Source: an uncultured Chthonomonadaceae bacterium (lineage in GTDB: Bacteria; Armatimonadota; Chthonomonadetes; Chthonomonadales; Chthonomonadaceae). Taken from it: DNA of 64,000 bases. The translations under genes and the position numbers were made by a program. Shown piece after piece: positions 43,044-64,000 of the stretch (positions are counted from its first letter, which is position 1; every line of letters begins with the position of its first letter). The notes beneath the pieces were generated by a model. The model did not search any database. It saw only the letters and a list, made by a program, of their open reading frames with translations, and was not told where the DNA came from. The stretch is taken from positions 288,001-352,000 of the forward strand of contig CAWFQB010000014.1 of the NCBI GenBank assembly GCA_963817895.1, written 5' to 3'.

Positions 43044-43173
43044 CGTGTTATATCTCACTTCAGCGAATTTTTGGAGCAACTTCAATGTACATCGCCAACC
43101 ATCTTCAATCATCAGTCTCCCCTCTCCCAGCGCGTTGCGCGGCAAGGAGAGGGGCCGGGGGTGAGGTTCCCCA

Positions 43174-46100: not shown

Positions 46101-46468
46101 GCGCCCTCCGCGATCCATTTGCGGATTATGTCCACCTCTTCCGGTTTGAGCGGCAGGCTTCCTTTTGGCATCAGGGGGGTTGCGCCGGAGATATAGCGCA
46201 TGACAAGGCTGTTTTCAGGATGGGCGGCGACAAATCCTGTTCCCTGCCTGCCGCCCGTCTTGAACGCTTCAAAGGTGGACAAATCCAGTTTCCCGCCGAG
46301 AGAGGCGGGATGATGGCAGGCTTCGCAACGCCGTTTCAGTATTAGCTTTACCTGTGAAGTAAAACTAACAGGCGAGCTGTCCGAGGGTTTCGTCTGCGCG
46401 GTTGCCAGATTTAGAGAAATCAGACACAACAACGCGGGAAGGAAAAAATAGCAAAGTCGAAGCCGCAT
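43174..46468 (-). CDS. Planctomycete cytochrome c / DUF1549 (PSCyt2) / DUF1553 (PSD1) protein (frameshifted)
   Basis: CEACH, FFEKKVRP..CYACH, HWAFQP, YGERWGRYWLD, CARCHDHKFDPI, NPLTARVMVNRLWQHHFG. Confidence 0.92.
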
Positions 46469-48577: not shown

Positions 48578-48738
48578 GAACAGGAGTTCTTGACCGCCCT
48601 ACGGTATTCCTGCCTGCTTCCGGCTTTTCACTGCAATTGTTATAAACGCTGTCACCTGAGAACATTAAAAGCCCCTCTCCTGGCGCGTTGCGCGGCAAGA
48701 GAGGGGTTGGGGTGAGGTGAGGCACCTTCATCACAGGC

Positions 48739-51647
48739 TTACGAATCATTGGAACTGCCAACATGGTCATAAAGGACATGACGCCGATAGATACTGCGCT
48801 CAGAGTTCTGCATCTTCTGCAATTCCAATTGCGCTTGTTGCTGATTTCCGTGGGCGCCAAACCAACGCGCAAAGAGAAAATGGTACAAAGCGGAATCGCT
48901 GCTCACAGAGTTCTGCCAGAAACCGTAAACCCCTCTTGCCTGCTCCCCCATATTTTGCGATAGGAAATAGTCATACTCATCCGAGTACGCCAGCGCCAGT
49001 TTATCGTCTGCCACACGCGCTTCTTTATAGATGTCAATCATCTGTTGACTTGTAACACTCCGATTCAGTTTAAGTCGTTGCGCTTGCGCGAGATACGCAA
49101 GCGCGCGGCCTCGCCCACTTTGCAATCCTTCGGCAAGTCTCATTGCTTCCGTAATATCATCATCCGCCGACTGTCCCTTTTGCAGGTAAATCATGCCTCT
49201 AAGCGCATGAGCGCTCGCCAGAGTGTTTGCGTCCTGGGCCTGTAGCATAGCATCTATCAACGGCATAGCCTTGTCCGGGGCATTCATCGCGAACCACTCA
49301 TACGCGGTGAAGTCGTCCTTGTTCGCGCTGACCGGGGACGCTGTTGTCCTGCCGGTTCCTCTCGCGCCGCTTTTGGTAGGCCGTCTCCCAATGAACTTAC
49401 TGACCGGATGCGCTATCGTGGGTTGTACAGTCGCCGGGACGGTAAAGGTCGCCGTTTTGGGATTATTGCCTGCCCCCGGCAATACTCCAGTGTCACCGCC
49501 CTGCTGTGTTCCAGGCATTGTGGCTGTGGGGCCAGGCTTGCCTGCCAGTTCTGCTTCCTTACCGGGTGGCAATGGAAGATCACTGGCAGCGGGACGCGCC
49601 TCCCCTTCCTTTCCCTTTGACGGCGTTCTACTGTCCGGCGTCTTCGGGGCAGTTTTCACCGTATCGTGAGTCGTCGCTGTCCCACCAGGAGTCGCTTTCT
49701 CATCAGGCTTTGCTTCAAGCACGGTAATGGTTCCGGCAGGAAGCTGTTCGCCGCCTTCAGGCTGCACGATAATGGCAGCCGCGCCATGTGGCGTACTAAG
49801 CGGCAGCGTGAAGCTGACTCCTTTGGAAGACCACGCCGGATTTACCGGCAAACCCTGTCCGCCGACAAAAACCTGGCCCTTGTCGCCAAGCCCCTCGCCT
49901 GAAATCGAAACCGACTCCCCCAGGCCTGTAACTGCCTGAGACAGGATGTATTTTGGCTGGCGGCGGGAACGCCAGATGGATATTGTACGCATCCTCTCTC
50001 AACTCCACCTTCAGTATTTTGGACTCGGAAGCAACCTTGTCCACCACCGCATAAACTTTCAGCATGGTAGGCTTAAGGACATCCGTTGTGATGTCGTCCA
50101 GCACAACCTGCTTTTCGTATGGGAGTACCGGGCGGGCTTCGCCTTTTCCGTTTGCGCTCGGTTCCCAAATTACATTTACTTCCTTCTCCTGTCGCGCCGC
50201 CTGTTTTAACCGGGGATTGTCGTCAATAGTAACGTTCAAGCGAACGGCTTTGGCAATGGGAATGGTAGCTGTTGGACTCAACGTCCATTCACCGAGGAAA
50301 TGCCGATCAGTGGTAGAAATAGAAAATTGTGACGGATCGCTGGTACGCGCGGAATTTTTCTTATCCGCCTTCAGTTTTGTCAGTTTGTAGTCGTCATAAA
50401 CGACACTTTTGTCAGGGTCGTTTATAACGGCTACTTTATAATTCAGCGGCGTCGCGCCCGGACCACCAGTTAAACGGCCACCGACATCCGTACCACCTTT
50501 TGGGCAAATCCTGAAAAACAACAATGTTTCCGTTGGGTTCGCCATGAATAGGTTTCGACAATTGTGTACCCTCAATGGACACAATTTGAAAATTTAGATC
50601 GTCCCAATTACCTTTGCCATTCTTTGTCGGCAAATCACCCGGGGGCAAACCGGCGAACAGGACGGTCATATTTACCACAGGCGCCCGGCGCGTGGGAATG
50701 CCCCACACGAGCCACATCAGCGAGAAGAGCGATGCGCCGAGAAAAGCCCAGTCGCGGCCCATGCGCAGCCAGGGAACATAGCGCACATAAATCGGTTTGG
50801 GCAGGGCTACCGGAACCGTCTGATGTTCGCCGACTCGCACCGCCCCGCGTACTGACACCCAACACGAGGTTCGCAGTTGCGTGGGCGGCAGTTCACAACG
50901 CCATGTGCCGGACGCGCGGGCCTCCATGGATTGGCTGATGGTGTCTACCTGCTCGGCATGTTCGGTAAGCGCCTGTCGGGTCGGGGCGCGTAAAATGTGC
51001 AGATTGGCGACCGATGGCAGGAAACAGCGGTCGTCCAGCGACAGCAAAAATTTCGCGTTACGCCGCCAGGGGCGCAGGCGCAGTTCCCCCGCGTCCGAAC
51101 GTAGCGCAAAGTCGTTCGCGGAGGGCAGAGGAACCCATCGCGCCGAGTCTTCCCCCACGACCACACCCGGATCGTTGCGGCGGCGCGGATCAAAGCGCGT
51201 GAGCACGAAATGAAACGATTGGGGCGACAGATGTTCGCGCGCGATGGGCGGAAACCGCACTTCAAAAACAGTTTCCTCACCCGGCTGAAGCAGAACGCCG
51301 CCTTCGGGCTGCCGTTCCCCGCCCGTCGCAGGCATGACAATATAGTGGTCTGCCGGAAGGTTCGTAATAGTGAGATTGTAACGGTAGGCCAACGGCTCAT
51401 CATTGCGCAGTCCCATCGTGGTCGGCTTACCGGGCCATACCAAATCGGCTTCAATATCGTCGCCAATCTCCTTACGCGTGGCAGCCTCTTCAGGGGAATA
51501 CGGCGTCTTTGCGCCGCCCAGAAAGGTAATCTGCGCTTCACCCAGTGGCGCATCGGGCGCATCGGCGCTGCGGCTATCCATCCCAAAATCGTTGGCGCCG
51601 GGTATATAGCCCGACAGTCCCATTCGGCCCAGGAGTTTGCGTATCAT
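48739..51647 (-). CDS. Large single-pass membrane protein (Ig-like N-terminus, TM helix, IPT/TIG-like domain, Pro/Thr linker, TPR-like C-terminus), split by two frameshifts
   Basis: Overlapping ORFs 50436-51647, 49796-50584 and 48739-49992 read as one protein; TM WAFLGASLFSLMWLVWGI; GESVSISGEGLG...WSSKGVSFTLP. Confidence 0.55.
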
Positions 51648-51757
51648 GGCGCTTTTCTCACTTCTTTTTACAGCATGCCACAGCGTCTTGACTGCGGCGT
51701 AATCATTTTGAATCTATCACATAACTACCTGGCGTTCTCAAGCTCGAATCGCGCTTC

Positions 51758-52297
51758 TTACGGCGTTTTACCTGTGGTCTTTCGCTTCTCGAAAATCACG
51801 GGATAGTCGAACCTCGATTTGCCCACGCGCTCGGTACTCACGCGATAGCCACTGAATATATCATGCCAGCGCTGTTTCCGCTCAGGCGCGCGAAGTATCA
51901 ATTGCGCTTCCAGATGATCCAGCCACAACTGATGCTCCTTGTTGGAACGCCATTCGACCTCTTCCTGCTTCTTCTCGTATGGGCCTGATTTATCAGGCGT
52001 GAACATCAGAGTTCTCTTTGATCCTAACGTTTTTGTACTCTCGTAACCTGAGTTTGGGCTTAGAAGTATTCCATCCGCGTCTTTCGCGTTCACCGGATTG
52101 CCTTCAACGTCGAAACCGAAAAAGTCCAGTGTAATGTCTTTCACGGCAGGCGGCTTCACCAGAACAGGGGCCACCGGTTTTGGTTTATGGTTCAGGATGC
52201 CAAGTATTGTGCCGACTGCCAGCGCGACGGCGAAGAAAGCAAGCCACTTTTTGGCAAAGTGGGCAGGCCAGCAGGTATTGGTAATCAGCGTTCCCAT
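51758..52297 (-). CDS. Hypothetical single-TM membrane protein
   Basis: AAGGA RBS; KKWLAFFAVALAVGTILGIL TM then soluble domain. Confidence 0.55.
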   Translation of the reverse strand: MGTLITNTCWPAHFAKKWLAFFAVALAVGTILGILNHKPKPVAPVLVKPPAVKDITLDFFGFDVEGNPVNAKDADGILLSPNSGYESTKTLGSKRTLMFTPDKSGPYEKKQEEVEWRSNKEHQLWLDHLEAQLILRAPERKQRWHDIFSGYRVSTERVGKSRFDYPVIFEKRKTTGKTP

Positions 52298-52600
52298 AGT
52301 TTGCGCTTTCCTTCGCGTCAATACTGTCTCATACACTACGATCAATCGTATTGATGCGGAAACACATTTGCCTGTAACCAGCGGTTAACGAAGAGCCATC
52401 TCTCTGCACAAGCAGACGGCTAAATCTTTTGAATCGTTCCCATTATTCCGGTAAGTTGTAAAGGCTGTTCTTCTTACCATTACGCGCTCCGCTCCGTTAA
52501 CTCACTTCCTGTTAGGGCGTTCCAACAGGTAAAAAGTTCACGGATTTTGGGTAAATGTTAATTAATTCACACGCGGAGATTACAAAAGCCTCACAGCCTC

Positions 52601-53635
52601 CTATTTGCGCCAGAAGGAACGGGGTTTTTGACCATTCGCTTCCGAAGAGGGTACGGATACCGCCAGATCGTGTCCAAGCGTAATCGGCTCCGGCTCCTCG
52701 TCGGGCGCGTCAAGCCATTTCAGCAGGGGCGGATACAATTGGAGCAGGCGCTCGAAACAGCCGTGAGCGCGTTCCAGCGCCTGCCCCATCGTCCAGTCGC
52801 CGTTCATCAGGGTCAGGAACCCGCCCAGATCATCCACCGCCACCTGATACGAGGTCAAGCCGGGATCGGGAAGCGCCATCAATTGCGTTCGTTGCGCGGC
52901 AAGAATTCCTGCCAGCCGTTCCACATAAGCCTGCGGATGAACGCGGGTATCCACGCTGACGGCGGCAGGGCCGAGCGAACCCGCCAGCGTCAGCGCGACG
53001 GAAAACACGCGCAGATTATCGGCGGAGTGTTTTTGCAGCGCATCCAATCCCTGCGAAGCCAACTCCACAATGTTTTTGTGCATTTGCCACTGGTTGGCGT
53101 GACTTGACAGAAACATGGTATCAGGGATGTAATGCGCATCCGGCTTCAAGCCTTCGGGCGTTTTCTCAAACTGCGCGATTTGCAGCCACTCGTATCGAGG
53201 ATCGGCGCTATCCGAAGCCAGGATATACTCGCGCCGCCGCCCGCCGCATTGCAGCAGGCCCATATCTACGGAGGGATGCAGTTCCGGTTCGCGCAAACGC
53301 TCGGCCTTGCCCACGCCGAGGAAAAGCGGCACAACATTCTGAACGGCCTGAATATGCCCGCGAACCGCCAGGCGAATATCATCGGGAACCTCGTAAAAGT
53401 AGCCATTCGCCCCAATTGCGAAACAGCCATGCACCGATACGGAAAATGTCTGATACCCTTCCGGGCTGGGCCGGCTGACGCCATCATCGGAAAGATGCAG
53501 CAGGCCGTGAAAACGCCCGCGCTGCAGTGTCCAGCGCATCAGCTCTTCCAGATAGAACGTTTCCTGTTTCCATTGACCGGCCTGCATCAAACCTACGGTA
53601 TCCCAATCTACAGACACCAAATCAAACTCGCGCAT
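52601..53635 (-). CDS. tssK: TssK-like T6SS baseplate subunit (divergent)
   Basis: VDWDTVGLMQAGQW (cf. TssK VxWxxGM), HGLL, VHGCFAIGANG (CxAIxxxG), PDAHYIPDTMFLSSH (YIPP); downstream of TssF/G-like genes. Confidence 0.6.
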   Translation of the reverse strand: MREFDLVSVDWDTVGLMQAGQWKQETFYLEELMRWTLQRGRFHGLLHLSDDGVSRPSPEGYQTFSVSVHGCFAIGANGYFYEVPDDIRLAVRGHIQAVQNVVPLFLGVGKAERLREPELHPSVDMGLLQCGGRRREYILASDSADPRYEWLQIAQFEKTPEGLKPDAHYIPDTMFLSSHANQWQMHKNIVELASQGLDALQKHSADNLRVFSVALTLAGSLGPAAVSVDTRVHPQAYVERLAGILAAQRTQLMALPDPGLTSYQVAVDDLGGFLTLMNGDWTMGQALERAHGCFERLLQLYPPLLKWLDAPDEEPEPITLGHDLAVSVPSSEANGQKPRSFWRK

Positions 53636-53676
53636 TTTGTAGTTACTCCTTCACACATCCACTCCTCAAAATGCAT

Positions 53677-53767
53677 CCCTTCTCCCGATTTTGGGAGAAG
53701 GGCCGAGGATGAGGGCCAAAAACGCCTCCCTTCTCCCAACTTTGGGAGAAGGGCCGGGGATGAGGGC
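53677..53767. repeat. Tandem CCCTTCTCCC-TTTGGGAGAAGGG REP-like hairpins
   Basis: Two about 40-nt copies between the TssG- and TssK-like genes. Confidence 0.8.
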
Positions 53768-53779
53768 TATCTCCTTCAA

Positions 53780-55609
53780 TCATTCCACACTCTGCAATCG
53801 TACGCCACTCTGATACGGATGCCGGAGGTAGCTTCCCTGCCCCATACGGGCGACACTCTCTTTCCAGACCACATCAGCCCGCAGGCAAACCGGCAGAAAC
53901 AGCCGCAGCAGCAGGGTTAATCTCGCTTTGGCGGCAATGGCCGCGTCGTCGCCGTCTTCGATCAGCGGCATATAAATCGTTACGCCCGGATAGTGTACCT
54001 GCACCATGCCGCCAAGCGCGGCGGTTGCTCCCGGCTGGCTGAACAGCGTGTTGAACCCACCGCCCACATTCTGGTAGTGATCCCACTTCACTTCAATACC
54101 GGGATCAATCAAACGCTGCAAGGCGGTTTGCAGCAGCAGCAACGGATCGGGCGCTTCCCGCCGCCATCCCACCAGCGACCAGAGTTCCTGCCGCTCCTCC
54201 GCGCTTAACAGGTCGGTATCGCGAATATCCGACAAAGCCGCGTTTCCCGCAAGGTTCAAACCATCCAACGAGGAAATCTTGCCCCCATAGATTGCAGAAG
54301 CGCCAACGTCATGTACAGACAACATTTCCGGTGAGTTGGTTCTTTCGGCTGAAAATGGCCGGCTGATGACACCTAAAAACCCCTCTTCGTTAAGCCATTT
54401 CTGCATCAGCGTCAGCAGAAGCGTCCGTTGACTCAGCCCGCCCGTAAACGAGAGAAACACGCCTTTCGCGGGCATCTCTCCTGTCGGCAGCCGAAAGTCT
54501 TCCACCTGTCCATGTATCCAGCCAATGCCCCACAGATAATCCAGCACGGCCACACTGGTAAAAACCTCTGTTGTGAGTATTTCCACCAGTTCGCGCGCAA
54601 TCCGGTAGCGTTCTCGGACGGTTTCCTGCGCCAGCCGGTCAATCAGCATTTGCAGCAGCAGCCGTTGCCGCGCGATTTCCACATCCGACAGGGCGTTCGC
54701 CAGTTCCGCCATGTGAGCGGCGCGGTCATTCAGGGTATCCAGCAAAAGCGCCGCGCCCCATTCGCGCAGGCGCGCTCGCGCCCCCACAGCCGCTTGTTCG
54801 CCCCCCTGCTCTGCCGGAAGCGTCAACTTGCTCACCTGCATATCAAACCATTCCGCAAGGAGCGGCCTGTCCGCTTTTTCGGGTACCGTCTGAGCCGACT
54901 GACGCAGCCACCGCTGCCGCTCTTCCAGTTCCGTCGCTTCGAGGGCGCGTAACAGGCCCTCGCACCATGCGTTCAGGATGTTGCGGGTTTCCAACGGAAC
55001 AACGCGCATCAGTTCCGGGTAGGCTGCGGCTATCTGCCGCGTCAATCGAGCCAGCGGTTGATCCACGCGCTCACGGGAAACCTCATTGTCCGACAGAGCA
55101 GTGTCAGCGGATTCGCCGTCCGGGGCGCCCTCATTTTCGACCGGAAGCGGCGGCAGTCCGGCAAGCAGCGGCTCCATGAAATGCGCCAGTCGCCCCACCT
55201 GCCGCATGGTTACATTTTCCGGTTCGCCGGGGGCAGCCGTATCCTGCCAGATAATATCCGCACGCACGTTCACCTTTAAGCGCGGGCGAATGGCGCGGGG
55301 ATTCACTTCGGTCACGGTCGCGCGTTCCGTAGCAGGATCATATCGAGCGCCCTGCGGATGCCGCAAATCCATTGCGGCGGCATGGCGTTCCCAGTCCTCC
55401 AGCGGCTCCTCTTCAACCACTTCGGGCAGAGCGAAATGACCGATTTCCGGCAAAAATCGGATGTTCTTTTCCGGTACGCCCAGTTGGTGCAGCGTCAGCC
55501 ACACTTGCAGCAGGTAGCTCGGCCAGTTTGCGCCCGACAGTTGCGGATACGGCACAAGTTCATTTTCCGTCGCCTCCTGTCGCCTGTCGCCTGTCTCCTG
55601 TATCCTCAT
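53780..55609 (-). CDS. tssG: TssG-like T6SS baseplate subunit (enlarged, divergent)
   Basis: IRFLPEIGHFALPEV near the N-terminus and LLLRLFLPVCLRADVVW...RMGQGSYL at the C-terminus; ATGA-coupled to the TssF-like gene. Confidence 0.5.
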   Translation of the reverse strand: MRIQETGDRRQEATENELVPYPQLSGANWPSYLLQVWLTLHQLGVPEKNIRFLPEIGHFALPEVVEEEPLEDWERHAAAMDLRHPQGARYDPATERATVTEVNPRAIRPRLKVNVRADIIWQDTAAPGEPENVTMRQVGRLAHFMEPLLAGLPPLPVENEGAPDGESADTALSDNEVSRERVDQPLARLTRQIAAAYPELMRVVPLETRNILNAWCEGLLRALEATELEERQRWLRQSAQTVPEKADRPLLAEWFDMQVSKLTLPAEQGGEQAAVGARARLREWGAALLLDTLNDRAAHMAELANALSDVEIARQRLLLQMLIDRLAQETVRERYRIARELVEILTTEVFTSVAVLDYLWGIGWIHGQVEDFRLPTGEMPAKGVFLSFTGGLSQRTLLLTLMQKWLNEEGFLGVISRPFSAERTNSPEMLSVHDVGASAIYGGKISSLDGLNLAGNAALSDIRDTDLLSAEERQELWSLVGWRREAPDPLLLLQTALQRLIDPGIEVKWDHYQNVGGGFNTLFSQPGATAALGGMVQVHYPGVTIYMPLIEDGDDAAIAAKARLTLLLRLFLPVCLRADVVWKESVARMGQGSYLRHPYQSGVRLQSVE

Positions 55610-57270
55610 CGTTCGCCCTCCGCGCCGACAACGCGCCCGTCAATGCGGAAACAGGATAAGACAAAATACTGCGACACGACGGACGCGAGATAGTTGGCGA
55701 CATCAGACAACAGCCATGGCGCAGTGCCGCTTGCTGCCGGAGTTGGCGCGAAAGCCAGATGCAGGCTCTGAAGCAGGGGCACAAAACCTGCCGTCAGGCC
55801 ATCGCGCGACAATTCAAACCCGTCTTCGTTGCCCAGAATCGAAGGCCACAGGTAAGATTTCCAGTGTTCCGCCGCGCCGCTCGGCTCCTGGGCAATGCCC
55901 CGGCTCGCGCTTTGCAGGCGCAGCCACTGGCCGAACGCGCCCTGACTGCGCTGCCGAACAATCTCCATCAGGTCGCCTTCGGTAAGCAGGGGCGGGCGCA
56001 ATGTACTCTGATACCACGCGGTTCGCGCCCATTCCGCCCGGTCTTCGGGGCCGCCCACGCTCAGGCCGCCAATGGCAGGCAGGGGAACGGTAAAGCGGGC
56101 ATTGGCGCGTTCCAGTCGGGCGGGGGTATCGCTTCCATCCTCGCGCTCCTGCCCGAAAGAATCGTGGTACAGCTTGACGCGGGCGATACTGGCATTGCCC
56201 TGCGCGAAGCGCACCTCTACATCGTCGTACTTCGCGCGGGGGTCATGGCTCGGCAATCGCTGCATGGACGCGGGAACAACGCTGTTGTCATTGTAGGTAA
56301 CGGCGGCGAAAATGTTGGGCAGTCCGCTCAGACGCAGCCCGTATTCCTGACCGATTCGGGGAAACGGCGCGGGAATGATGCTGTCGACAACAGCAGTCTG
56401 CGCGAGGGGAATGGGGTTCAGCAGCAAACGGGAACTGTCAGGAAGGGCGGCAAACTCCTGCGCGGCGCGGCGAACGGCAGGCGTGGCAAGAGGCAGGCGC
56501 GCGGTGAAGCGCAGGCCGTCCGTTGCGGACGGCGCGCTCGGAACAGGCGGCGTGTCCCTGCGGTCGGCTCCCCCATCGCTTTGCAGACAAATAATTTTAC
56601 GGGCATAAGGATGGCAGGGCGGCAGCCAAAAATCCAATTGCCGCTGATTAAGGCGAGCGGTCTGCATTTCGCGCTCAAAAGCGAGAAACCCCTCATAGCG
56701 TGTCAGGCGGGCGGGGCGGTTTTCCCCGGTTCCAATCTGTACCCACCAGTTCGCGCTTTGCAGGACGCCGAGGAGGGATTCGTTTCCGGCAACAAAAGCG
56801 AGTTGCCCGCGCTCTAACAGAGAAACAGAATTGGATTGACTGCTCAGAAGCGTAATATCCAGCGTCACTATCGCCTCGCGCTCCTGAATTTGCATGGATA
56901 GTGACTGCAACTGCGTGGGGTGCAGCCAGCCGTCGCCACAGGCCATCCACGGGCGCTTGCCGACCTCGGTAAAGGCGGTTCCGAAAGGAACATCGGTGGC
57001 GCGTTCCACAGGAGATTGGGGAACAGCAAGAGTTTGCGCGGGGAAATTCCAGTTTCCGAGGGGGAAGAACTGCTCCTGCAGGCGGGCGATAGCGGCATTC
57101 TCGCCCATCGCGTAGTGTGTTTGCACCGCGTTTTTCCATCCGGCAAGCATCGCGAGAAAAGGGGCGTAATGCGTGTCGTAATCGGCGAGGACGCGCTGCC
57201 GCATGTCACGGGGCATGTACGCGAGTATGTCGCGGACGTTTTCAGGTACTTCGCTCTCATCAAACGCCAT
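55606..57270 (-). CDS. tssF: TssF-like T6SS baseplate subunit (divergent)
   Basis: ARLQEQFFPLGNWNFPAQTLA...VPFGTAF, LLNPIPLAQ (cf. LNCxPxxN), LRPPLLTEGDL (cf. RIVTxxD); 554 aa. Confidence 0.55.
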   Translation of the reverse strand: MAFDESEVPENVRDILAYMPRDMRQRVLADYDTHYAPFLAMLAGWKNAVQTHYAMGENAAIARLQEQFFPLGNWNFPAQTLAVPQSPVERATDVPFGTAFTEVGKRPWMACGDGWLHPTQLQSLSMQIQEREAIVTLDITLLSSQSNSVSLLERGQLAFVAGNESLLGVLQSANWWVQIGTGENRPARLTRYEGFLAFEREMQTARLNQRQLDFWLPPCHPYARKIICLQSDGGADRRDTPPVPSAPSATDGLRFTARLPLATPAVRRAAQEFAALPDSSRLLLNPIPLAQTAVVDSIIPAPFPRIGQEYGLRLSGLPNIFAAVTYNDNSVVPASMQRLPSHDPRAKYDDVEVRFAQGNASIARVKLYHDSFGQEREDGSDTPARLERANARFTVPLPAIGGLSVGGPEDRAEWARTAWYQSTLRPPLLTEGDLMEIVRQRSQGAFGQWLRLQSASRGIAQEPSGAAEHWKSYLWPSILGNEDGFELSRDGLTAGFVPLLQSLHLAFAPTPAASGTAPWLLSDVANYLASVVSQYFVLSCFRIDGRVVGAEGER

Positions 57271-57331
57271 CCGCGTATTCTCCTACTCCCCTGCTCCTTA
57301 ATAACCTGATAATCTATTAACCCATCCGCTC

Positions 57332-57991
57332 CTATCTATTCTCCAGCCACTGCTTCACTTCCTGCCGGGATTGCGCTTCAGGACTCTGCTCATTCATCAG
57401 AATGGTATCCGTCACCTCTTTTAGCGTGATGCCCTGCGCGTTGGCGGCAGCCGGGTTTGCGCCCCGTTTCAGCAGCATTTGAACTGTTGAGAATTGGCGC
57501 AAAATCGCCATTTTGAGCAGCAGCGTGTTGCCGTTCGCGTCCCTTGCTTCGATGTCTGCGCCATGTTTGAGCAGCAGTTCAATATTTTCGCGGCGCAGTT
57601 CGTTTGCCGCAATAAATACAATCGGTTCTCCTTCCGGCCCCTTGCCGTTGGGATTGCCTCCGTTCTCCAGTAAAATTTGCAGCAGTTCCGGGTCGTCCGC
57701 GCCTGCCCCCAGAGCAACGGGAGATTTTCCCGCTTCCGCGTTCCAGTTCGGGTCGGCTCCCCGTTGCAGCAGCAGGCGCATCCACTCTTTTCGGCGGTAT
57801 ACCATGGCGACAATGAGCGGCGGAGCGCCTTCCGAACCGGGAGCGTTGGGGTCAACGCCCGTGTTCAGCAATGCCTGCGCATTCTGCGAATGGTCTTCTG
57901 CAATAGCGGCAATCAGTTGTTCCGTGGCGGCGTTGCCCACAGTGGGCACAGCCACTTGAAAGGCTGAATTAAGGGGCGTATTCGAGGACAT
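57332..57991 (-). CDS. Ankyrin-repeat protein, probable lipase immunity/accessory protein
   Basis: ATG overlaps the lipase TGA at 57991; repeats GVDPNA, LLLQRGADPN, LLENGGNPN, LLKHGADIEARDANGNT. Confidence 0.8.
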   Translation of the reverse strand: MSSNTPLNSAFQVAVPTVGNAATEQLIAAIAEDHSQNAQALLNTGVDPNAPGSEGAPPLIVAMVYRRKEWMRLLLQRGADPNWNAEAGKSPVALGAGADDPELLQILLENGGNPNGKGPEGEPIVFIAANELRRENIELLLKHGADIEARDANGNTLLLKMAILRQFSTVQMLLKRGANPAAANAQGITLKEVTDTILMNEQSPEAQSRQEVKQWLENR

Positions 57992-58882
57992 CAGAAGCAA
58001 CCTCCTCCCAAAAGTTCCTGTTGGCGTTGATAATCCAGCGCACTTGTAACCGAACCCATTTTGTGCAGAGTGCCAGGATTGCTGGAAAGCGGCTCCCCGT
58101 TCGCGCTTCGCGCGGCAAGGTCTACCTGACAGCCGAGCGCGGCGGGGATGCCGGAGCCGACGGCAGCGCCGATTCTGGCTCCCACTCCCGCGCCGCTGCC
58201 GCCACTCGCGATAGCCCCGATAACTCCGCCGGCGGCCCCCAGGTAGGCGGCAGGGTGTTTCTGGAAACCGGTCAGGACTTCGCCCTCCACACGGTAGTTG
58301 GTAATCAGGTTGTTCAAATTGGACGTGTCCAGATTCATGCGGGCGAGTGTTGCGGGGTTTACGCCCGCCGCATTGAACGTCGTGGTAGGCACATGCAGAA
58401 CCGCCGCGCCCACGCCTGCGAGTTCCTCCGCCCAGCGAGTGTCCCGTCACCACAATATTGTCGTTGGGAAACTGGCGCTTCACCTCATACGCCGCTTCCG
58501 CCGCCTGATTGTACTGCGCGGTTTCAAACCCCAACCCCTGCTTTGCGTTAGCCCACCAGTCTTTAGCGCTGGTCACTTCGGTTCCCCGGTAAGCAAGCAC
58601 AATGTTGCCGGTACGCAGATCACGATATGTAGCCGCGAAAAATCCGCTGTCCGGGTGGTTAAAATTGGGCAGAACTCGTTCCGAATCAGGGGGATGGCCG
58701 GTGTCATTATACGCGGCGGTCGAAAATTCGGCCATGCGCTGCGCGGTTGCGGTATCGGTAGGACACTTACTTTTTGAGTTCGCGCCTCCTGCGCCCGCCG
58801 CAGCAACTGCGCCCTGAGCGTGCTGCGCGATAATAGGAAGCAAATCTTCAACAAAGCGATTTCGGTTTAGCAGGGAAGCCAT
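57991..58882 (-). CDS. Lipase class 3 / DUF2974-like phospholipase effector (one frameshift)
   Basis: SGFFAATY, VLAYRGTE, DWWANAKQGLG, VTGHSLGGG, then TFNAAG and GTLHKM in the frame of ORF 57991-58413. Confidence 0.82.
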
Positions 58883-58937
58883 AACTTCACAACCCCTTCA
58901 CTTTCTACAGCGTTCAAGCAACCCATCGTAAGGATAT

Positions 58938-60230
58938 TTATGTTTGCACCCTATTTACGCTAATAAATAAGATTCGTTTGCAACGGTGTGTCCGGCAGGC
59001 TGATAGTTGTATACCTCTTAATTTTACTTCCGGCACAGAGTAGAAGCCGCTGTACGCCGCCGCTTTCTTGCCGCCGTCATGCCCACCCCCATACGGCGTC
59101 ACCTGATGCAGCCATGCCCGTTCGCCAGAGGGCTGCGGGTCCAGATGTTCCCACTCGAACTCCACCTGAATACGTCCCTGTTGCAGCGGGTCATGCTCAT
59201 TCGCCGTGACATGCCCCCACACCGCCCGGCTCGGCCACTCAGGTCGTTCTTTGTGCGGCGGCAAGGGCAGGGTCAAGGGTTGCAGCCACAACTCCTGCGT
59301 TCCCGTCGTTTGTTCCGGATGTCCCACAATGCGCGTCTGGTAGATGAGATGCTGCTGCCCCTCAAAAGAAACCACCTGCCCCGGTTGAAACGGCAACACC
59401 ATGCCTTCCAGACGCAAATAGTAGCCGCTGATGTCGTTATGCCCTTTGGTGTGACTCACGTTGCTGGTAATATCAGGACGCTCGGGAGCCTGCATGTAGT
59501 CTGCTGTGGCGCGGCTGAGTTGCCCAAGATGCTGACTGGCCTGCTGACGCGCCTGAGCCGTGGGGCCGCTGCCGCCGCTCGGAGGTTCGGGCAGAGTATG
59601 CAGACTGCCGCCGAAACTCACTTCCGCCCACCCGAAGTTGATGTCGGGGAACGTTTCACTCGCTTCCTGTCCTCTGGCTCCTAACTGCACATCCCCGGTT
59701 CTGTCCACAACCGCGACAGGAACGCTCCACGCATGGCACATTCTTGCGAGGTACTGGTAGTCGGTTTCGAGGTACTGCAAACTCAGGGGAATGGGCTTGG
59801 CAAGATCGCCCGCGTTGACGATCTTGAAGCGCGGCTCGGTTTTGGCAACCTGCTGCGCGATGTCGAGGAGGGTTGTGGCCTGAAACGCTCTGTGCCGCGG
59901 CACAAGATCGGTGCGCTTGCTGTAACTCACTCACGAGAGTGTCAGGCGCGAACTGTTGGCGTCGCGCTGTCCCGATGTGTTCTCCACGTATCCGTGAAAG
60001 CAGTTGAGCGCTTCGACGAGATCGTTGTCTTTCCAGTTCACATCAACGGGGCAGTTGAGCGCTTTGCCCGCAAACAGGGCGGTCGGACGCTCGCCATAGT
60101 GGTTGTGTTCCTGCCAGCGCCACGTCAGATGGGCGCGCGTATGCTCGTACAGATGGCGTTCCACCACCATCTCACTGAGAAACTATTTGGTATAATTTTT
60201 CAGTTTTGTTACCGATACGGTGGCTGTGTA
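58938..60230 (-). pseudogene. vgrG: VgrG/phage late-control D-like spike protein with in-frame stops, truncated inside the gp5 OB-fold
   Basis: FHGYV, RHRAFQ, LQYLETDYQYLARM, GHVTANEHDPLQQGRIQVEF, AWLHQVTPYGG, GFYSVPEV; TAG at 60183-60185 and TGA at 59931-59933 in frame. Confidence 0.8.
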
Positions 60231-61252
60231 TCAGAAACGTTTTCTGATTGAACAGCATTCTGTAGTGTGCTTTGATAGATTTGCGCAGTGGCGGCGAATG
60301 TAGCGGCGCGATCTGTGCCGTTGACAACACGGCGGGCATTAGCAAAGTCTGTTGCAGTATCATTGACGTAATCGGGCAAGGCGCGTCCGGTAAACGTACC
60401 CTGCATCATACCCTGTGCCAGAATACGCGCGGCTGTCTGAGGATTAGTTGCTTGCTCGGGATGGGCGACAAGATTGATGGCTGCGTTATCGGGTTGCAAA
60501 CGGTTTGTCCAGTCTTGATAGTTGTTGCGGCCTGTAACCTGCACATACCCGCGTCCACGAAAATCATAGCCGTCGCTAGTACCCGCCTGATTGCCCAAGT
60601 CTGCATGTCGGGGCATATTGTAGCGAGAATCGAAGTAGTCCTGCGGTGTCTGGCTCTGCGCGAGGTGCCAGGGAACTTCCTCCAGCGCGGGATACTCTAT
60701 GCCATGCCAAGTGTGAGGAGAACCAAAATCCGATTCATGCTGTGCGGTTGCGAGCATGTAAGCTGTTTGCGGCAAGTTCGCGTTCTGCTGCGCTGCGGCC
60801 TGCAAAATCGCAGGAACGGCCGTTTGCGCGTAAGGGCGGAGGTTGGCAGGCACAGCCTGTACTATCACATCGGCAAACCGAGTGAAGTTATTGGCCGCCC
60901 GCTGCACAGCCTGTCCTCCTATCTGCGCCGCGCCTTGTGCGATAGGCCCTGCAAAGCCAGGTGTAGCTCCCGGCAGACCTTGCGTGGACTCAGCTAAAAT
61001 AGGTCCCGCAAATCCGGGCGTAGCTCCCGAAAGCCCACTTGATTGCGCTGATTGGAACGGAGGCGTCATTCCCGTTGTTCCCTGGCCTGTCATCTGCGCA
61101 ATGCTGCCGATAGCCGTCTGTACTGCTGTCTGCGCAACACTGCCGCCGGGAAGCAAGTGAGATACCGCCTGATTTGCTTCCTGCGTGGTAATAGAAAGAA
61201 CCTCTTCTACGAAGCGGTCCCGTTTTAGTGGTTCGGAAGGATTAGGGGACAT
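60209..61252 (-). CDS. GH19/lysozyme-like protein with long N-terminal extension (candidate effector)
   Basis: AYMLATAQHES, FRGRGYVQVTGRNNY, NLVAHPEQA, GTFTG, ARRVVNGTDRA. Confidence 0.8.
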   Translation of the reverse strand: MSPNPSEPLKRDRFVEEVLSITTQEANQAVSHLLPGGSVAQTAVQTAIGSIAQMTGQGTTGMTPPFQSAQSSGLSGATPGFAGPILAESTQGLPGATPGFAGPIAQGAAQIGGQAVQRAANNFTRFADVIVQAVPANLRPYAQTAVPAILQAAAQQNANLPQTAYMLATAQHESDFGSPHTWHGIEYPALEEVPWHLAQSQTPQDYFDSRYNMPRHADLGNQAGTSDGYDFRGRGYVQVTGRNNYQDWTNRLQPDNAAINLVAHPEQATNPQTAARILAQGMMQGTFTGRALPDYVNDTATDFANARRVVNGTDRAATFAATAQIYQSTLQNAVQSENVSDTQPPYR

Positions 61253-61409
61253 TTTGAAAAACGTAGCTCCTTGTTTCAGCGATGAAAGCGCAAACTATAC
61301 AGTAGTTGCTGAAAGGTAAACTTATACTTGCTTTGCAGTTCTTCCAGTGTCGTGATCGTAATTACTCGACCCGGTGTGGCTGAAAAAGCCGATTATACGA
61401 CGATGTCAA

Positions 61410-61595
61410 CTACTTGTTCCAAGTACGACAGTGGAGACAAGGGTTTGATAATTTCAGACGTAACTTTTCACACACCGGACAGGCATAACGAAGTTCCTGT
61501 TCATATTCTGCTGGCGATATTTCGAAATGCGCATCCCACGTTGTATCTTCTGCACAATGCGGGCATAAAATCGTTTCCGTTAAAATGTGTCCCAT
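61410..61595 (-). CDS. Small Cys-rich (zinc-ribbon-like) hypothetical protein
   Basis: Three CxxC motifs (CPHC, CPVC, CLHC) in 61 aa. Confidence 0.4.
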   Translation of the reverse strand: MGHILTETILCPHCAEDTTWDAHFEISPAEYEQELRYACPVCEKLRLKLSNPCLHCRTWNK

Positions 61596-61722
61596 GATGT
61601 CCCTTTGTATTGTTCACGTAACTCGTGATGTCGGGACGCTCGGGAGACTGACGGGTGACGACATTTATGGAAATGTCGTCATCGTCAGTTTCCACTCAAG
61701 GTGCTTCTATTTCGTGATAAAC

Positions 61723-62208
61723 TCAAGAGCGGCGGAAGGAAAAGGAGTAGAGTATCTGTTCAAATATGAAAGCGTACTTCTCCTGTATGCTCTCCAGCGT
61801 TGTTGCAGTAATTATCAGTCCTGTGCGAGAAGATTCACCTGTCGCTGAATCGCTTGGCAAGGGACAAATTATATACGCCTGACGTTGCCGCATGACCTGA
61901 CGATCCGACTTCCAATTGTATTCCGCAGTGACAACACCAACTCCATCCACTATTGTTTCGCCACGTAGTATTAACCGATAGCCCGGTAGCTTTTGCGATA
62001 ATACTTGCAGCCCTTTACTGGCAAAGCCTTGCGCAGACTCATCTATGCCTACATTTTCACGACTGACGACAAAACTAAATTCCGGCGGCACCTGACTCTT
62101 GGGAGCCATAACTGCTTCCAAGTTTGCTATAGCAAAGATGTTGACGCTTTGATCTTGAGATTGGTAAGGAAGCACAAACTCGGCTTCGTTAATACGGTAC
62201 AAGTTCAT
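61723..62208 (-). CDS. DUF1795/DcrB-like (EagR-type) effector adaptor
   Basis: YRINEAEFVLP...DQSVNIF, FSFVVSRE, YNWK...MRQRQA, LIITAT, ILYSFSFR. Confidence 0.75.
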   Translation of the reverse strand: MNLYRINEAEFVLPYQSQDQSVNIFAIANLEAVMAPKSQVPPEFSFVVSRENVGIDESAQGFASKGLQVLSQKLPGYRLILRGETIVDGVGVVTAEYNWKSDRQVMRQRQAYIICPLPSDSATGESSRTGLIITATTLESIQEKYAFIFEQILYSFSFRRS

Positions 62209-62318
62209 TAGTCTCTCCTATGCAGGATGTGAGCGTAACCGAATTGTGACTACGGCACTTCTGTAAACAGATGCGCTATACGTAGGCAAAAGAACTCTGC
62301 ATACAAATCGAGCAATCT

Positions 62319-63299
62319 TTACTGTTGAGCACCTGCCGTACGCAGTAGAAGAACCATATCCTGAAAGCCTGCTGCCACCGCCAGAGTCAGGGCTGTATCA
62401 TTCCCATTGTCAACAGCATTCACCCGCGCACCCTGGTTCATTAATAGGCGAGCCATTTCCTGGTAGTCGAAAGTGACCGCCCACATCAGAGGCGTCCACC
62501 CATCTTTGTCGCGAACATTCACGTTCACGCCGGCGTTCAGCAATTCTTGAACGTTTTCAATCTGATTGCCCATCACGGCCTTAATCAGTTTTTCAACGTC
62601 AGGAGATAAAGCATGCAAAGGCGCGGCCACATTCGCAAAGAGGATTTCCGCTGCTTCCTGCGGTAAGAAATAGGCGTAATCCGCTATCGCGCTCACCCAG
62701 TTTTGAGAGTGGGATTGCTCCGGCGCTTGTGTCCTCGAAAGTGAGGGTTCGCGTGACCGAAGCGCCCCATTTTGCACAGCCACCGGATAGAGCAGGTAAG
62801 GCTCAACATGCAGTTCCTGCGCCAGCAGTAGCAGGGGATAGGATTGCTTCTGAAAAATGGATTCTTGTACGGATTTACCAAGTTCCGGCGTGTCAGCAAA
62901 ATTAAGATTATAATCGTGTCGTATGGCAATCAAGTAGCCGCCATTGCAAGAAACCGATTGATAAAGCTCATTGTCAGTAACTGTTTGCGTCCAGCCATCC
63001 TTGCCAATCAAGCGCGTCTCTTTTGTGCGATCATGGCGATACATAATATAAGTATCATTCTCGAACAGCATGGGACTGCGTTTGACTCGCGCTTCGTGCC
63101 TCGCCATGCATTGCGCCCAAAAACCGCCATAGGGAGACTGGATCAGGCAACGCAGATGGCAATTTCCGAACGCGCGGCGCGTAATCACCTGACGGGCTTC
63201 CGGCGTATTGTTGTCAATCAGGTAAGTATCCATAACGGCATCCTGACCAACCAATCCTAACACCACATTGCCACAGAGAAAGCACAGCGTTTCTTGCAC
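62319..63299 (-). CDS. Hypothetical protein with C-terminal ankyrin repeats (possible immunity protein)
   Basis: LLNAGVNVNVRDKDGWTPLMWAV, GARVNAVDNGNDTALTLA; Cys/His-rich N-terminus (CFLC, CHLRC). Confidence 0.7.
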   Translation of the reverse strand: MQETLCFLCGNVVLGLVGQDAVMDTYLIDNNTPEARQVITRRAFGNCHLRCLIQSPYGGFWAQCMARHEARVKRSPMLFENDTYIMYRHDRTKETRLIGKDGWTQTVTDNELYQSVSCNGGYLIAIRHDYNLNFADTPELGKSVQESIFQKQSYPLLLLAQELHVEPYLLYPVAVQNGALRSREPSLSRTQAPEQSHSQNWVSAIADYAYFLPQEAAEILFANVAAPLHALSPDVEKLIKAVMGNQIENVQELLNAGVNVNVRDKDGWTPLMWAVTFDYQEMARLLMNQGARVNAVDNGNDTALTLAVAAGFQDMVLLLRTAGAQQ

Positions 63300-63343
63300 T
63301 TGAAATTTACCTCCATCGGACGCATTACGTTCCGCAGAAAATC

Positions 63344-63829
63344 CTATGGTTCGGTACGCAGCATCTTTAAGAACTCTATGAAGTTACTTGCAACGGGAAT
63401 CATGGAGGGCTGGCCTTCCTGTGACCCTTCATGATTCCACACGACTACGCGTGGCACGGCCTCTCCACCAGATTGATCAAAGCAGAGCATATCGCCCGCG
63501 AACAGCTCTGCGAACGGAACTTGACTGTCTAGGAGACGATCAAATATTTGTGACAGAACGACACCTACATCATAACCCTTATGACTCGGGTCTGCGCTGA
63601 GATTATCAATCATGCACAGAAAGCGTGTGATCACCTTTGTGTTTCCAGGCATGTCGAAGTACCGCTTTCGTGGCTTGCCGCCATTGCATCGCTGTAGGTG
63701 TGTCAAATAAGCAGGTTCGTACCGGATGCCATACATCTTTTCGGTGGAAGAAAAGATGCGCATAGATACCGGCCCGGCGCAACTGCCGTCTTCGTATTCT
63801 ATATCCACATAATCGTCAGCGTATGTCAT
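63344..63829 (-). CDS. SMI1/KNR4 (SUKH) family immunity protein
   Basis: ATG after AAGGA; YLTHLQRCNGG, VPFAELFAGDMLCFD, PRVVVWNHE, VASNFIEFL. Confidence 0.85.
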   Translation of the reverse strand: MTYADDYVDIEYEDGSCAGPVSMRIFSSTEKMYGIRYEPAYLTHLQRCNGGKPRKRYFDMPGNTKVITRFLCMIDNLSADPSHKGYDVGVVLSQIFDRLLDSQVPFAELFAGDMLCFDQSGGEAVPRVVVWNHEGSQEGQPSMIPVASNFIEFLKMLRTEP

Positions 63830-63875
63830 GCGTTTTCCTTTTCTAGGCACTCCCTCTAGTTCCCCCTGCTGCTCT

Positions 63876-64000
63876 CTATCTTGGTCCTTCAGCCCAATTG
63901 CCTTCTTTTCTGCCGCCATCATGGTTGTAGATGCGGTGAGTACCATATGGAACTTGCTGCATTGTGCCGTCTGGTCGGCCTTGCCCTGCCGGACCATGAT
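63876..64000 (-). CDS. C-terminus of a WHH-type HNH nuclease toxin (partial)
   Basis: Not in ORF track; reads (H)HGPAGQGRPDGTMQQVPYGTHRIYNHDGGRKEGNWAEGPR*, matching WHH...GTMQLVP...H...H.GG...W. Confidence 0.75.
   Translation of the reverse strand, partial: HGPAGQGRPDGTMQQVPYGTHRIYNHDGGRKEGNWAEGPR

Follow-up and report, generated by a model that had tools for sequence, protein, structure and literature searches.

The locus described here probably encodes an antibacterial, cell-anchored contractile injection system that is a T6SS by its mode of action and lies outside subtypes i-iv. The downstream half of the locus is within the window, the 64,000-nucleotide stretch of DNA that was analysed, and the remainder is located directly past base 64,000. 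A sheath, a TssF-like wedge, a TssK-like connector, VgrG, a PAAR effector, a DUF1795 chaperone, and effector and immunity domains were identified by fold or profile. These parts are a mosaic relative to the described T6SS subtypes. The co-occurrence of membrane proteins with the machine suggests envelope attachment and contact-dependent delivery, and the system's own membrane proteins probably provide a novel kind of anchor to the cell.

Locus organization, effector cassettes and gene breaks

All the genes named in the preliminary description, from the WHH nuclease to the membrane protein genes, are present on the minus strand, at the coordinates and in the order reported there. The sheath, tube and PAAR genes, for which it had pointed to the contig beyond 64 kb, were found just outside the window, together with a full vgrG. 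The proposed host in Armatimonadota, a phylum little studied so far, fits the names carried by the relatives (Chthonomonadaceae, Capsulimonadaceae and Armatimonadales). In the order of the genes, the features are:

C14:359669-360365, same strand, outside the window: tandem ubiquitin-like protein with a C-terminal TM segment (Ubl-TM)
C14:356953-359611, same strand, outside the window: single-chain sheath gene, in pieces here
C14:356160-356642, same strand, upstream, outside the window: Hcp-like tube gene
C14:354179-356015, same strand, upstream of the WHH effector, outside the window: full vgrG, with one frameshift
63876..64000 (-): 3' tail of the prePAAR-PAAR...WHH nuclease effector gene; the whole gene is C14:351876-354051, two ORFs
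63344..63829 (-): SUKH/SMI1-KNR4 immunity protein, 161 aa (PF14568, E 3.7e-14)
62319..63299 (-): candidate immunity protein, ankyrin repeats at the C-terminus
61723..62208 (-): DcrB/DUF1795 (EagR-type) effector chaperone (PF08786, E 3.2e-15)
61276..61650 (-): decayed cassette, with relics of vgrG (53 nt, 85%) and of the DcrB C-terminus (35 aa)
60209..61252 (-): GH19-like endolysin whose N-terminus is of low complexity, candidate effector
58938-60182 (-): vgrG duplicate, truncated and stop-containing; a silent cassette head or relic
57991..58882 (-): class-3 lipase / Mbeg1-like effector candidate with a GHSLGG motif, frameshifted (PF01764, PF11187, E 6e-4)
57332..57991 (-): ankyrin-repeat protein, 219 aa (Ank_2, E 2.5e-16), candidate lipase immunity protein
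55606..57270 (-): TssF/gp6-like wedge subunit F, 554 aa
53780..55609 (-): putative TssG/gp7-like wedge subunit G, 609 aa
52601..53635 (-): TssK-like baseplate connector K, 344 aa
51758..52345 (-): small membrane protein, 150-200 aa, TM segment at the N-terminus, hydropathy 2.08
48739..51647 (-): MEM900, large single-pass membrane protein, here three overlapping ORFs

The full ORF of the WHH effector matches Pfam families PF05488 (E 6e-10), PF25799 (E 1e-4) and PF14414 (WHH, E 3e-6). The GH19-like endolysin, which has no Pfam match, is similar to the endolysin family PHROG_181 (E 1.1e-21), and its homologue in the G001 locus matches GH19 (E 2e-4). The 516-aa ORF at 57332-58882 consists of the lipase N-terminus and the separate 219-aa ankyrin gene, fused by a frameshift. 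By inspection, arrays of DUF1795-like, PAAR-toxin and immunity genes are located downstream in three of five relatives read, and the loci of the other two end after MEM900.

VgrG is about equidistant from its best T6SS-i, T6SS-iii and Bacillota references (59.9, 57.3 and 54.2 bits, respectively), and its longest continuous alignment is with a T6SS-iii VgrG. Over 1145 nt, the vgrG copy in the window shares 91.4% identity with the full gene. It has no start, an in-frame stop that arose by substitution, and a 3' end inside the OB fold. This truncated copy and the relics downstream of the main vgrG may be traces of recombinational cassette exchange.

Frameshifts are present in at least six locus genes, and the second vgrG, whose stop arose by substitution, is a genuine pseudogene. 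Both observations would fit a family that is functional elsewhere and a copy here that is decaying, with a broken sheath, vgrG, PAAR toxin and MEM900. However, housekeeping-type genes are equally broken, with a ClpC-like gene of C14 and the dnaK of C6 likewise in pieces, and genome completeness is 81%, as an indel-prone assembly would give; a single DNA run covers 6 of 30 bins. Moreover, F, G and K are unbroken across 4.6 kb, and 16 of the 18 other carriers encode the sheath in a single intact ORF, so that decay of the copy is very unlikely.

Baseplate, sheath and tube

Searches of Pfam, NCBIfam, PHROG and PDB sequences gave no meaningful match for F or G. The best Foldseek match of the AF2 model of F (pLDDT 84.8) is TssF (6n38_H/I, E 5.9e-16, TM 0.40). 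By VIA, the best nine rows are all baseplate entries (Z 6.6-9.6), and eCIS wedges rank above TssF (6giy_A, Z 6.0). The model places F in the gp6/TssF/Afp11 superfamily, with TssF as the best match by Foldseek and eCIS proteins by VIA. G follows F in all 18 loci that reach F (the G002 copy was assigned by eye). Weak Atlas leads for G are Tail_P2_I and Baseplate_wedge (0.77-0.78), no match of G to TssG was obtained in Pfam, PDB or hhalign, and G is a putative TssG by its position. K directly follows G in 14 of the 18 loci. Its orthologues match the Pfam TssK family PF05936 in 3 of 13 members (best E 3.7e-9), the best PDB hits of its profile are TssK 6n38_A (E 0.03) and 5mwn_A (E 0.07), and hhalign aligns it to a T6SS-i TssK over 186 columns (E 1.8e-4). 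K has 344 residues compared with about 445 in canonical TssK, and therefore the C-terminal head is apparently missing.

The preliminary description had read these three genes as coupled and as carrying remote TssF, TssG and TssK motifs in F-G-K order. The coupling holds for F and G, which overlap by ATGA, but not for G and K, which are separated by 144 nt. The TssF assignment is borne out by fold and that of TssK by sequence, but that of TssG has its position to speak for it.

The sheath is a single chain of about 850 aa, encoded in intact loci by one ORF of 840-900 aa in place of the T6SS-i-type split TssB and TssC. It matches no sequence family in Pfam, NCBIfam, PHROG or PDB sequence searches. 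All of the best 27 VIA rows for the model of the G038 orthologue (pLDDT 69.6) are contractile sheaths, and the protein aligns end to end with single-chain sheaths in VIA-align. Phage, archaeal and eCIS sheaths reach Z 16-18, slightly above the T6SS sheaths (Z 15-16). P. aeruginosa TssC1 aligns over 370 residues, starting from model position 364, and T6SS entry 3j9o over 341 residues, compared with about 200-325 for most phage and eCIS sheaths. The chain may be built from an N-terminal arm of phage type, an insertion that is helical and acidic, and a body resembling TssC. In the Atlas the sheath lies near VipB by features (0.90) and, by structure, near a cluster with both VipB and VipA. The nearest Atlas clusters consist of hypothetical proteins from Bacillota (0.91 by features) and of a 'transcriptional regulator' from Fusobacteriota (TM 0.40/0.46; Atlas model pLDDT 0.43), comparisons with shared-feature counts below 170 that serve as a lead only.

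The tube protein fits Hcp in position and size, its matches to T4_gp19/TssD profiles are all below threshold, and it is nearest to T4-gp19/eCIS tubes, with weak TssD matches in 5 of 15 members. Its Hcp-like nature is weakly shown by sequence. In the proposed mechanism, F, G and K would assemble a baseplate around VgrG-PAAR, on which the Hcp tube and the one-piece sheath would polymerise.

Membrane proteins, distribution and components searched for

MEM900 comprises a conserved N-terminal beta region of about 300 aa, one TM segment, and a variable exported region with a Pro-rich linker; the orthologue of locus L017 carries fn3. No meaningful PDB sequence match was found for it. Since its orthologues are single ORFs of 680-940 aa, the ORFs at 50436-51647, 49796-50584 and 48739-49992 are most likely one indel-broken gene. 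The small membrane protein is placed between K and MEM900 in most loci, and in 20 of 23 loci the sheath gene has the Ubl-TM gene immediately upstream of it. A role of Ubl-TM in ubiquitin conjugation is disfavoured: each of the 16 aligned members terminates in a TM segment and none in a free Gly-Gly, and no E1/E2/JAB family was seen by inspection among the conserved clusters. No outer-membrane component was identified.

Bongiovanni 2024 (PMC10781749) describes TssK as the link between baseplate and membrane and proposes that TssN docks TssK via a ubiquitin-like domain. By analogy with TssN, the candidate docking sites for TssK on the cytoplasmic side are Ubl-TM and the N-terminal part of MEM900; a complex prediction for K and this part of MEM900 returned an uninformative score of 0.03. 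The three locus-specific single-pass membrane proteins would stand in for TssJLM/TssNOPQR.

Of 401 Armatimonadota genomes, the same 19 contain the sheath, K and MEM900, including cases where they are unlinked (G038, G040, G364 and G255), and Ubl-TM is found in those 19 carriers and in one contig-edge fragment; the profiles derive in part from these genomes, and one genus accounts for 12 of the carriers, so that these occurrences are not independent. Plasmids contained nothing relevant for Hcp, the sheath or K.

TssL and TssM (PF09850, PF14331) were found in none of five genomes, of which four have a completeness of 92% or more, with a positive E. coli control. TssA (PF06812) was found in none of the five, and a remote analogue is conceivable. 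TssN (PF17555) was likewise found in none, with a control set that gave no positive over the cut-off, and no profile match to TssN/O/P/R was obtained with one T6SS-iii reference set. TssE/gp25 is absent from every locus read and gave nothing over the cut-off in three of five system-bearing genomes tested. It exceeds the cut-off in G231, in G284 and, within a separate eCIS, in G000, and not in G001, G038 or G143. The genome studied here also has a separate, ordinary eCIS-type locus on contig C1. No Clp ATPase is linked to any locus; the Clp ATPases encoded elsewhere in six genomes reach at most 841 bits, below the cut-off of 885, and one of them could act as ClpV/TssH in sheath recycling.

The one-piece sheath, the structural scores of sheath and wedge, which are at least as high against eCIS, phage and archaeal proteins as against T6SS, the tube nearest to T4-gp19/eCIS tubes, and the lack of linked ClpV or TssA would all fit a single-use eCIS or cytoplasmic CIS. 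Such a particle would be lysis-released or loosely tethered to the membrane and would have borrowed TssK and T6SS effector cassettes. This explanation is unlikely, because TssK is a T6SS part, DUF1795/prePAAR loading is accompanied by cognate immunity genes, and the membrane proteins strictly co-occur. Furthermore, when 23 loci were clustered, inspection revealed no conserved gene for an ATPase, a tape measure, a cap, a fibre or gp25 and no such counterpart of Afp15, Afp16, Afp7, Afp9 or Afp11/12 (of these, an eCIS HMM was used for gp25), and the genome has a separate eCIS-type locus on C1. The earlier preference for a T6SS over an eCIS is thus probably correct, given TssK, the loading and immunity genes, and the co-occurring membrane proteins. 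Contraction of this cell-anchored T6SS would send the PAAR-linked WHH DNase, the GH19-like cell-wall hydrolase and the lipase into neighbouring bacteria, and the SUKH and ankyrin proteins would shield kin.

Comparison with known injection systems

The system shares with T6SS-i of Pseudomonadota (EAEC TssKFG 6n38; P. aeruginosa TssB1C1 5n8n; V. cholerae VipA/B) the TssF fold, the N-terminal and neck region of TssK, a TssC-like sheath body, the F-G gene order, and prePAAR-PAAR effectors with DUF1795 chaperones. In contrast to T6SS-i, it has a single-chain sheath of about 850 aa with a large insertion and a short TssK, TssL, TssM and TssA were not found in the five genomes, and no TssE or ClpV is linked. 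Identity in structural alignments with T6SS-i is about 8-13%.

As with T6SS-iii of Bacteroidota (TssNQOPR; PMC10781749), TssJLM appear to be lacking and the system's own membrane set adjoins tssK. A membrane-anchored ubiquitin-like domain reminiscent of TssN, the weak TssD matches of the tube, the short TssK and the longest continuous VgrG alignment could be explained by a very divergent T6SS-iii in which Ubl-TM is a reduced TssN. However, the membrane proteins are single-pass, whereas TssN is polytopic; PF17555 was found in none of the five genomes, no similarity to the one TssN tested was seen, and TssO/P/R are unmatched in the one reference set. K scores better on one T6SS-i TssK (13.4 bits; the values for a second T6SS-i TssK and for a T6SS-iii TssK are 1.0 and 1.8). 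TssE and a Clp ATPase are both present in the T6SS-iii reference locus, the only one compared, and neither is linked here. The sheath is fused. A T6SS-iii origin is accordingly highly improbable, and the closeness to T6SS-iii that had been suggested by eye was not upheld by the K scores, the equidistant VgrG, the T4-gp19/eCIS-like tube or the search for TssN.

The one-piece sheath is common to the eCIS-derived anchored systems (Amoebophilus T6SS-iv, haloarchaeal T6SS 9ezm and Streptomyces CIS 9gtp), which provide a precedent for anchoring by a lineage-specific membrane protein (PMC11566945). Unlike these, the present system has TssK and a TssF-sized wedge, and no Afp11/12-type cage, cap or AAA ATPase gene was seen in the locus.

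The suggestion of an undescribed T6SS subtype is probably right, considering that TssL, TssM, TssN and TssA were not found in five genomes, that the sheath is fused and that the membrane proteins are the system's own; identity across the subtypes is about 10%. The system would represent a structural intermediate between split-sheath T6SSs and the one-piece sheaths of phages and eCISs, and would show another solution for docking a TssK baseplate to the cell envelope.

A broader proposal is more tentative. The system could be an additional T6SS subtype whose envelope anchor (Ubl-TM and two single-pass proteins) is the third to have been recruited independently, with a fused sheath and no TssE, TssA or ClpV; in some branches a dedicated Hsp70/J-domain pair may recycle the sheath. 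It would then form the Armatimonadota arm of a large lineage, so far overlooked, to which Bacillota and Fusobacteriota also belong. Standard profiles miss the sheath, wedge and tube, and surveys would therefore score carrier genomes as T6SS-negative. If the proposal is true, T6SS-like weapons are present in phyla scored in this way.

The system is possibly kin to unannotated Bacillota/Fusobacteriota loci. It has in common with their VgrG-DUF4280 loci the nearest Atlas clusters of the sheath and the 54-bit Bacillota VgrG match, but differs in that the loci read here mostly pair PAAR with DUF1795, not DUF4280. The Bacillota loci examined were auxiliary vgrG-DUF4280 clusters, an isolated vgrG fragment or ordinary eCIS, and no core locus was among them. 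Zhang et al. 2021 (PMC8651086) speculated that the VgrG-DUF4280 loci belong to a phage-like translocation system as yet unknown. If the link holds, the system described here would supply the core machine to which the orphan VgrG-PAAR toxin clusters, left unassigned in that study, belong.

Organization of the locus

As judged from its sequence, the locus encodes a T6SS-like machine that is real and cohesive, carries antibacterial cargo, and is unclassified; it is likely a new T6SS subtype. The genes of the preliminary description and their order on the minus strand were all recovered, and following the contig beyond 64 kb added the sheath, an Hcp-like tube, a full vgrG, a toxin, and a membrane protein, so that the locus runs approximately 8.4 kb past the window edge.

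Genes of the locus in reading order (C14 is the contig, of which the window covers 288001-352000)
C14:359669-360365, minus: tandem ubiquitin-like membrane protein (Ubl-TM), first gene
C14:356953-359611, minus: sheath, second
C14:356160-356642, minus: Hcp-like tube, third
C14:354179-356015, minus: vgrG, full copy, fourth
C14:351876-354051, minus: prePAAR-PAAR-WHH toxin, fifth, followed by the window genes
Window genes, in order, minus: SUKH, ankyrin, DUF1795, relics, GH19-like enzyme, truncated vgrG (58938..60182), lipase, ankyrin, F (55606..57270), G (53780..55609), K (52601..53635), small membrane protein, large single-pass membrane protein MEM900 (48739..51647)

A repeat of approximately 50-65 nt at the locus end (window 48653-48733) has dozens of genome-wide copies with 85-98% identity, and a second short dispersed repeat is positioned between G and K (window 53676-53770). 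Downstream of the locus, a Planctomycete-type cytochrome c / DUF1549-DUF1553 and DUF1501 gene pair was recognized by eye (window 41586-46468).

Most gene breaks in the locus are probably assembly errors, because indels are frequent across this assembly and also affect dnaK and a clpC-like gene. The in-window vgrG is different from the other breaks: it shares 91.4% identity with the full copy across 1145 nt, has no start, contains a stop caused by a substitution, and breaks off within the OB fold. Close to it are two relics, one of vgrG (53 nt) and one of DUF1795. The truncated vgrG and the relics may be traces of effector-cassette exchange. Toxin-immunity arrays with vgrG or DUF1795-PAAR are positioned downstream in three of the five relatives read.

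Sheath, tube, and baseplate proteins

Sequence searches with the sheath provided no match. The structure of its intact 863-residue orthologue from another Armatimonadota genome (G038) was modelled with a pLDDT of 69.6. The best 27 rows of the VIA-align comparison were all sheaths (Z 18.2-10.9; next row Z 8.8), and the best Foldseek matches were sheaths too, but weak (E 0.007 and above). The model aligns with one-piece sheaths from approximately residue 20 to 855, and with TssC1 over 370 residues starting at residue 364. These spans of the model suggest that the sheath is similar to TssB and TssC fused into one chain, with an insertion that is helical and acidic. Members of the tube family match T4 gp19 (11 of 15) and TssD (5 of 15), in both cases weakly. 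In the G038 locus (L008, contig C2), Hcp is present as three tandem paralogues, and the C-terminal extension of one of them is similar to the VgrG tail; genes for LysM/PG-binding, OmpA-like, and caspase domains occur in L008 and in a further related locus, L055.

F, G, and K had been proposed to be TssF, TssG, and TssK, and the proposal is supported for F by fold and for K by profile. The AF2 model of F (pLDDT 84.8, built from 46 sequences) is most similar in Foldseek to TssF of the T6SS baseplate 6n38 (E 5.9e-16, TM 0.40, 11% identity), followed by wedges of Streptomyces CIS, phages, and eCIS. VIA-align places F in the same superfamily, but ranks TssF below eCIS and phage wedges. The F family is small, with 40 clusters at 50% identity among 1.84 billion representatives. 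PF05936 is matched by 3 of 13 members of the K family (best E 3.7e-9), the two top PDB matches of the K profile are both TssK, and hhalign aligns it with a T6SS-i TssK over 186 columns. Given the domain layout of TssK, K (344 aa) appears to be without the C-terminal head; the fetched TssK references have 445 and 382 aa. G found no support in Pfam, PDB, or hhalign comparisons, and its putative reading as TssG derives from position, coupling to F, and Atlas leads below 0.8.

Candidate envelope anchor and missing components

The Ubl-TM profile matches di-ubiquitin-type chains (best E 0.007) and, weakly, YukD, and all 16 members have a hydrophobic segment at the C-terminal end. According to Bongiovanni et al. 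2024 (PMC10781749), TssK binds TssN, which is proposed to dock the baseplate via a ubiquitin-like domain. Because no sequence similarity between Ubl-TM and TssN was found, the parallel would be one of analogy or of very remote homology. In MEM900, a single transmembrane segment follows a conserved region of approximately 300 residues; no outer-membrane part was identified. The machine is rather likely to be anchored and to act in a contact-dependent manner.

None of the TssL, TssM, TssN, and TssA families was found in the five genomes searched, two of which consist of a single contig and are 96% complete. The loci contain no gp25, and three of the five carriers have none over the cut-off; the gp25 of this genome sits in a separate eCIS-type cluster. 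This second, ordinary cluster (contig C1:288000-312200) contains, by inspection, tube, LysM/Afp7-like, VgrG, gp25, baseplate J-like, and DUF4157-like genes. Two other carriers (L041 and L013) have eCIS-like genes close to the T6SS-like locus.

No Clp ATPase is linked to the loci. The unlinked ones all score below the ClpV cut-off, despite which the system may use them. In the Armatimonadota genome G001, bacterium HR15, and six metagenome loci (five closely related), the Ubl-TM gene lies between dnaK and a J-domain gene; in G001 and HR15, the two genomes checked, this dnaK is an additional copy or paralogue.

Positions of the dnaK - Ubl-TM - J-domain triplet
L035:1108-4331, L054, L056-L060, G001:C3:316439-319700: next to the sheath or at the end of the locus

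Sheath recycling driven by Hsp70 is speculation, because the flanking pair is absent from the locus described here and from Capsulimonadaceae loci. In L056-L060, the genes after the sheath encode caspase-like and large exported proteins and not Hcp or VgrG, and the system is therefore distributed among several sites.

Distribution and comparison with known systems

Relatives carry the names Chthonomonadaceae, Capsulimonadaceae, Armatimonadales, Abditibacteriales, and bacterium HR15. One MAG with the title Janthinobacterium lividum (L024, JBPBQB010000014.1) has a Capsulimonadaceae-type locus that groups within the Capsulimonadaceae clade, and its label is probably wrong. The sheath was found in 19 of 401 Armatimonadota genomes sampled, K and MEM900 in the same 19, and Ubl-TM in these and in one contig-edge fragment. 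The co-occurrence indicates cohesion, not statistical independence, because these genomes were among the sources of the profiles and a single genus accounts for 12 of the 19 carriers. The gene immediately before the sheath is Ubl-TM in 20 of 23 loci compared; F and G are adjacent in all 18 loci that reach F, with K directly next in 14.

The sheath of this genome is 73-75% identical to those of the Capsulimonadaceae clade and only 44% to those of its two congeners, from which a 100/100 split separates it in the sheath tree (with a long-branch warning for one congener). This suggests horizontal exchange or old paralogy.

Comparison with single reference loci of T6SS-i (two), T6SS-iii (one), an eCIS, and Bacillota vgrG clusters places K nearest to one T6SS-i TssK and the tube nearest to the eCIS tube, with VgrG approximately equidistant; no scores against any of them were obtained for F, G, or the sheath. 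Because of these mixed affinities and null results, the earlier leaning towards the Bacteroidota-type T6SS-iii is unsupported. An undescribed subtype is otherwise likely: the system is unclassified, and no description of it was found in the literature searched, mostly open-access, although survey tables in subscription journals could list these genomes. One preprint scores Bacillota as T6SS-negative and leaves Armatimonadota unmentioned (bioRxiv 10.64898/2026.06.16.732483). On Paenibacillus and Clostridium plasmids (L073, L075, and L076), vgrG-DUF4280-toxin clusters occur as orphans, and these replicons lack TssK.

The nearest Atlas entries of the sheath are Bacillota hypothetical proteins, a Fusobacteriota 'transcriptional regulator', and VipB. 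They fit a putative, unannotated VgrG/TssK locus type of Bacillota and Fusobacteriota. They also fit the speculation in Zhang et al. (PMC8651086) on a phage-like system for translocation that is not yet known. Kinship with the Bacillota and Fusobacteriota loci is a lead.
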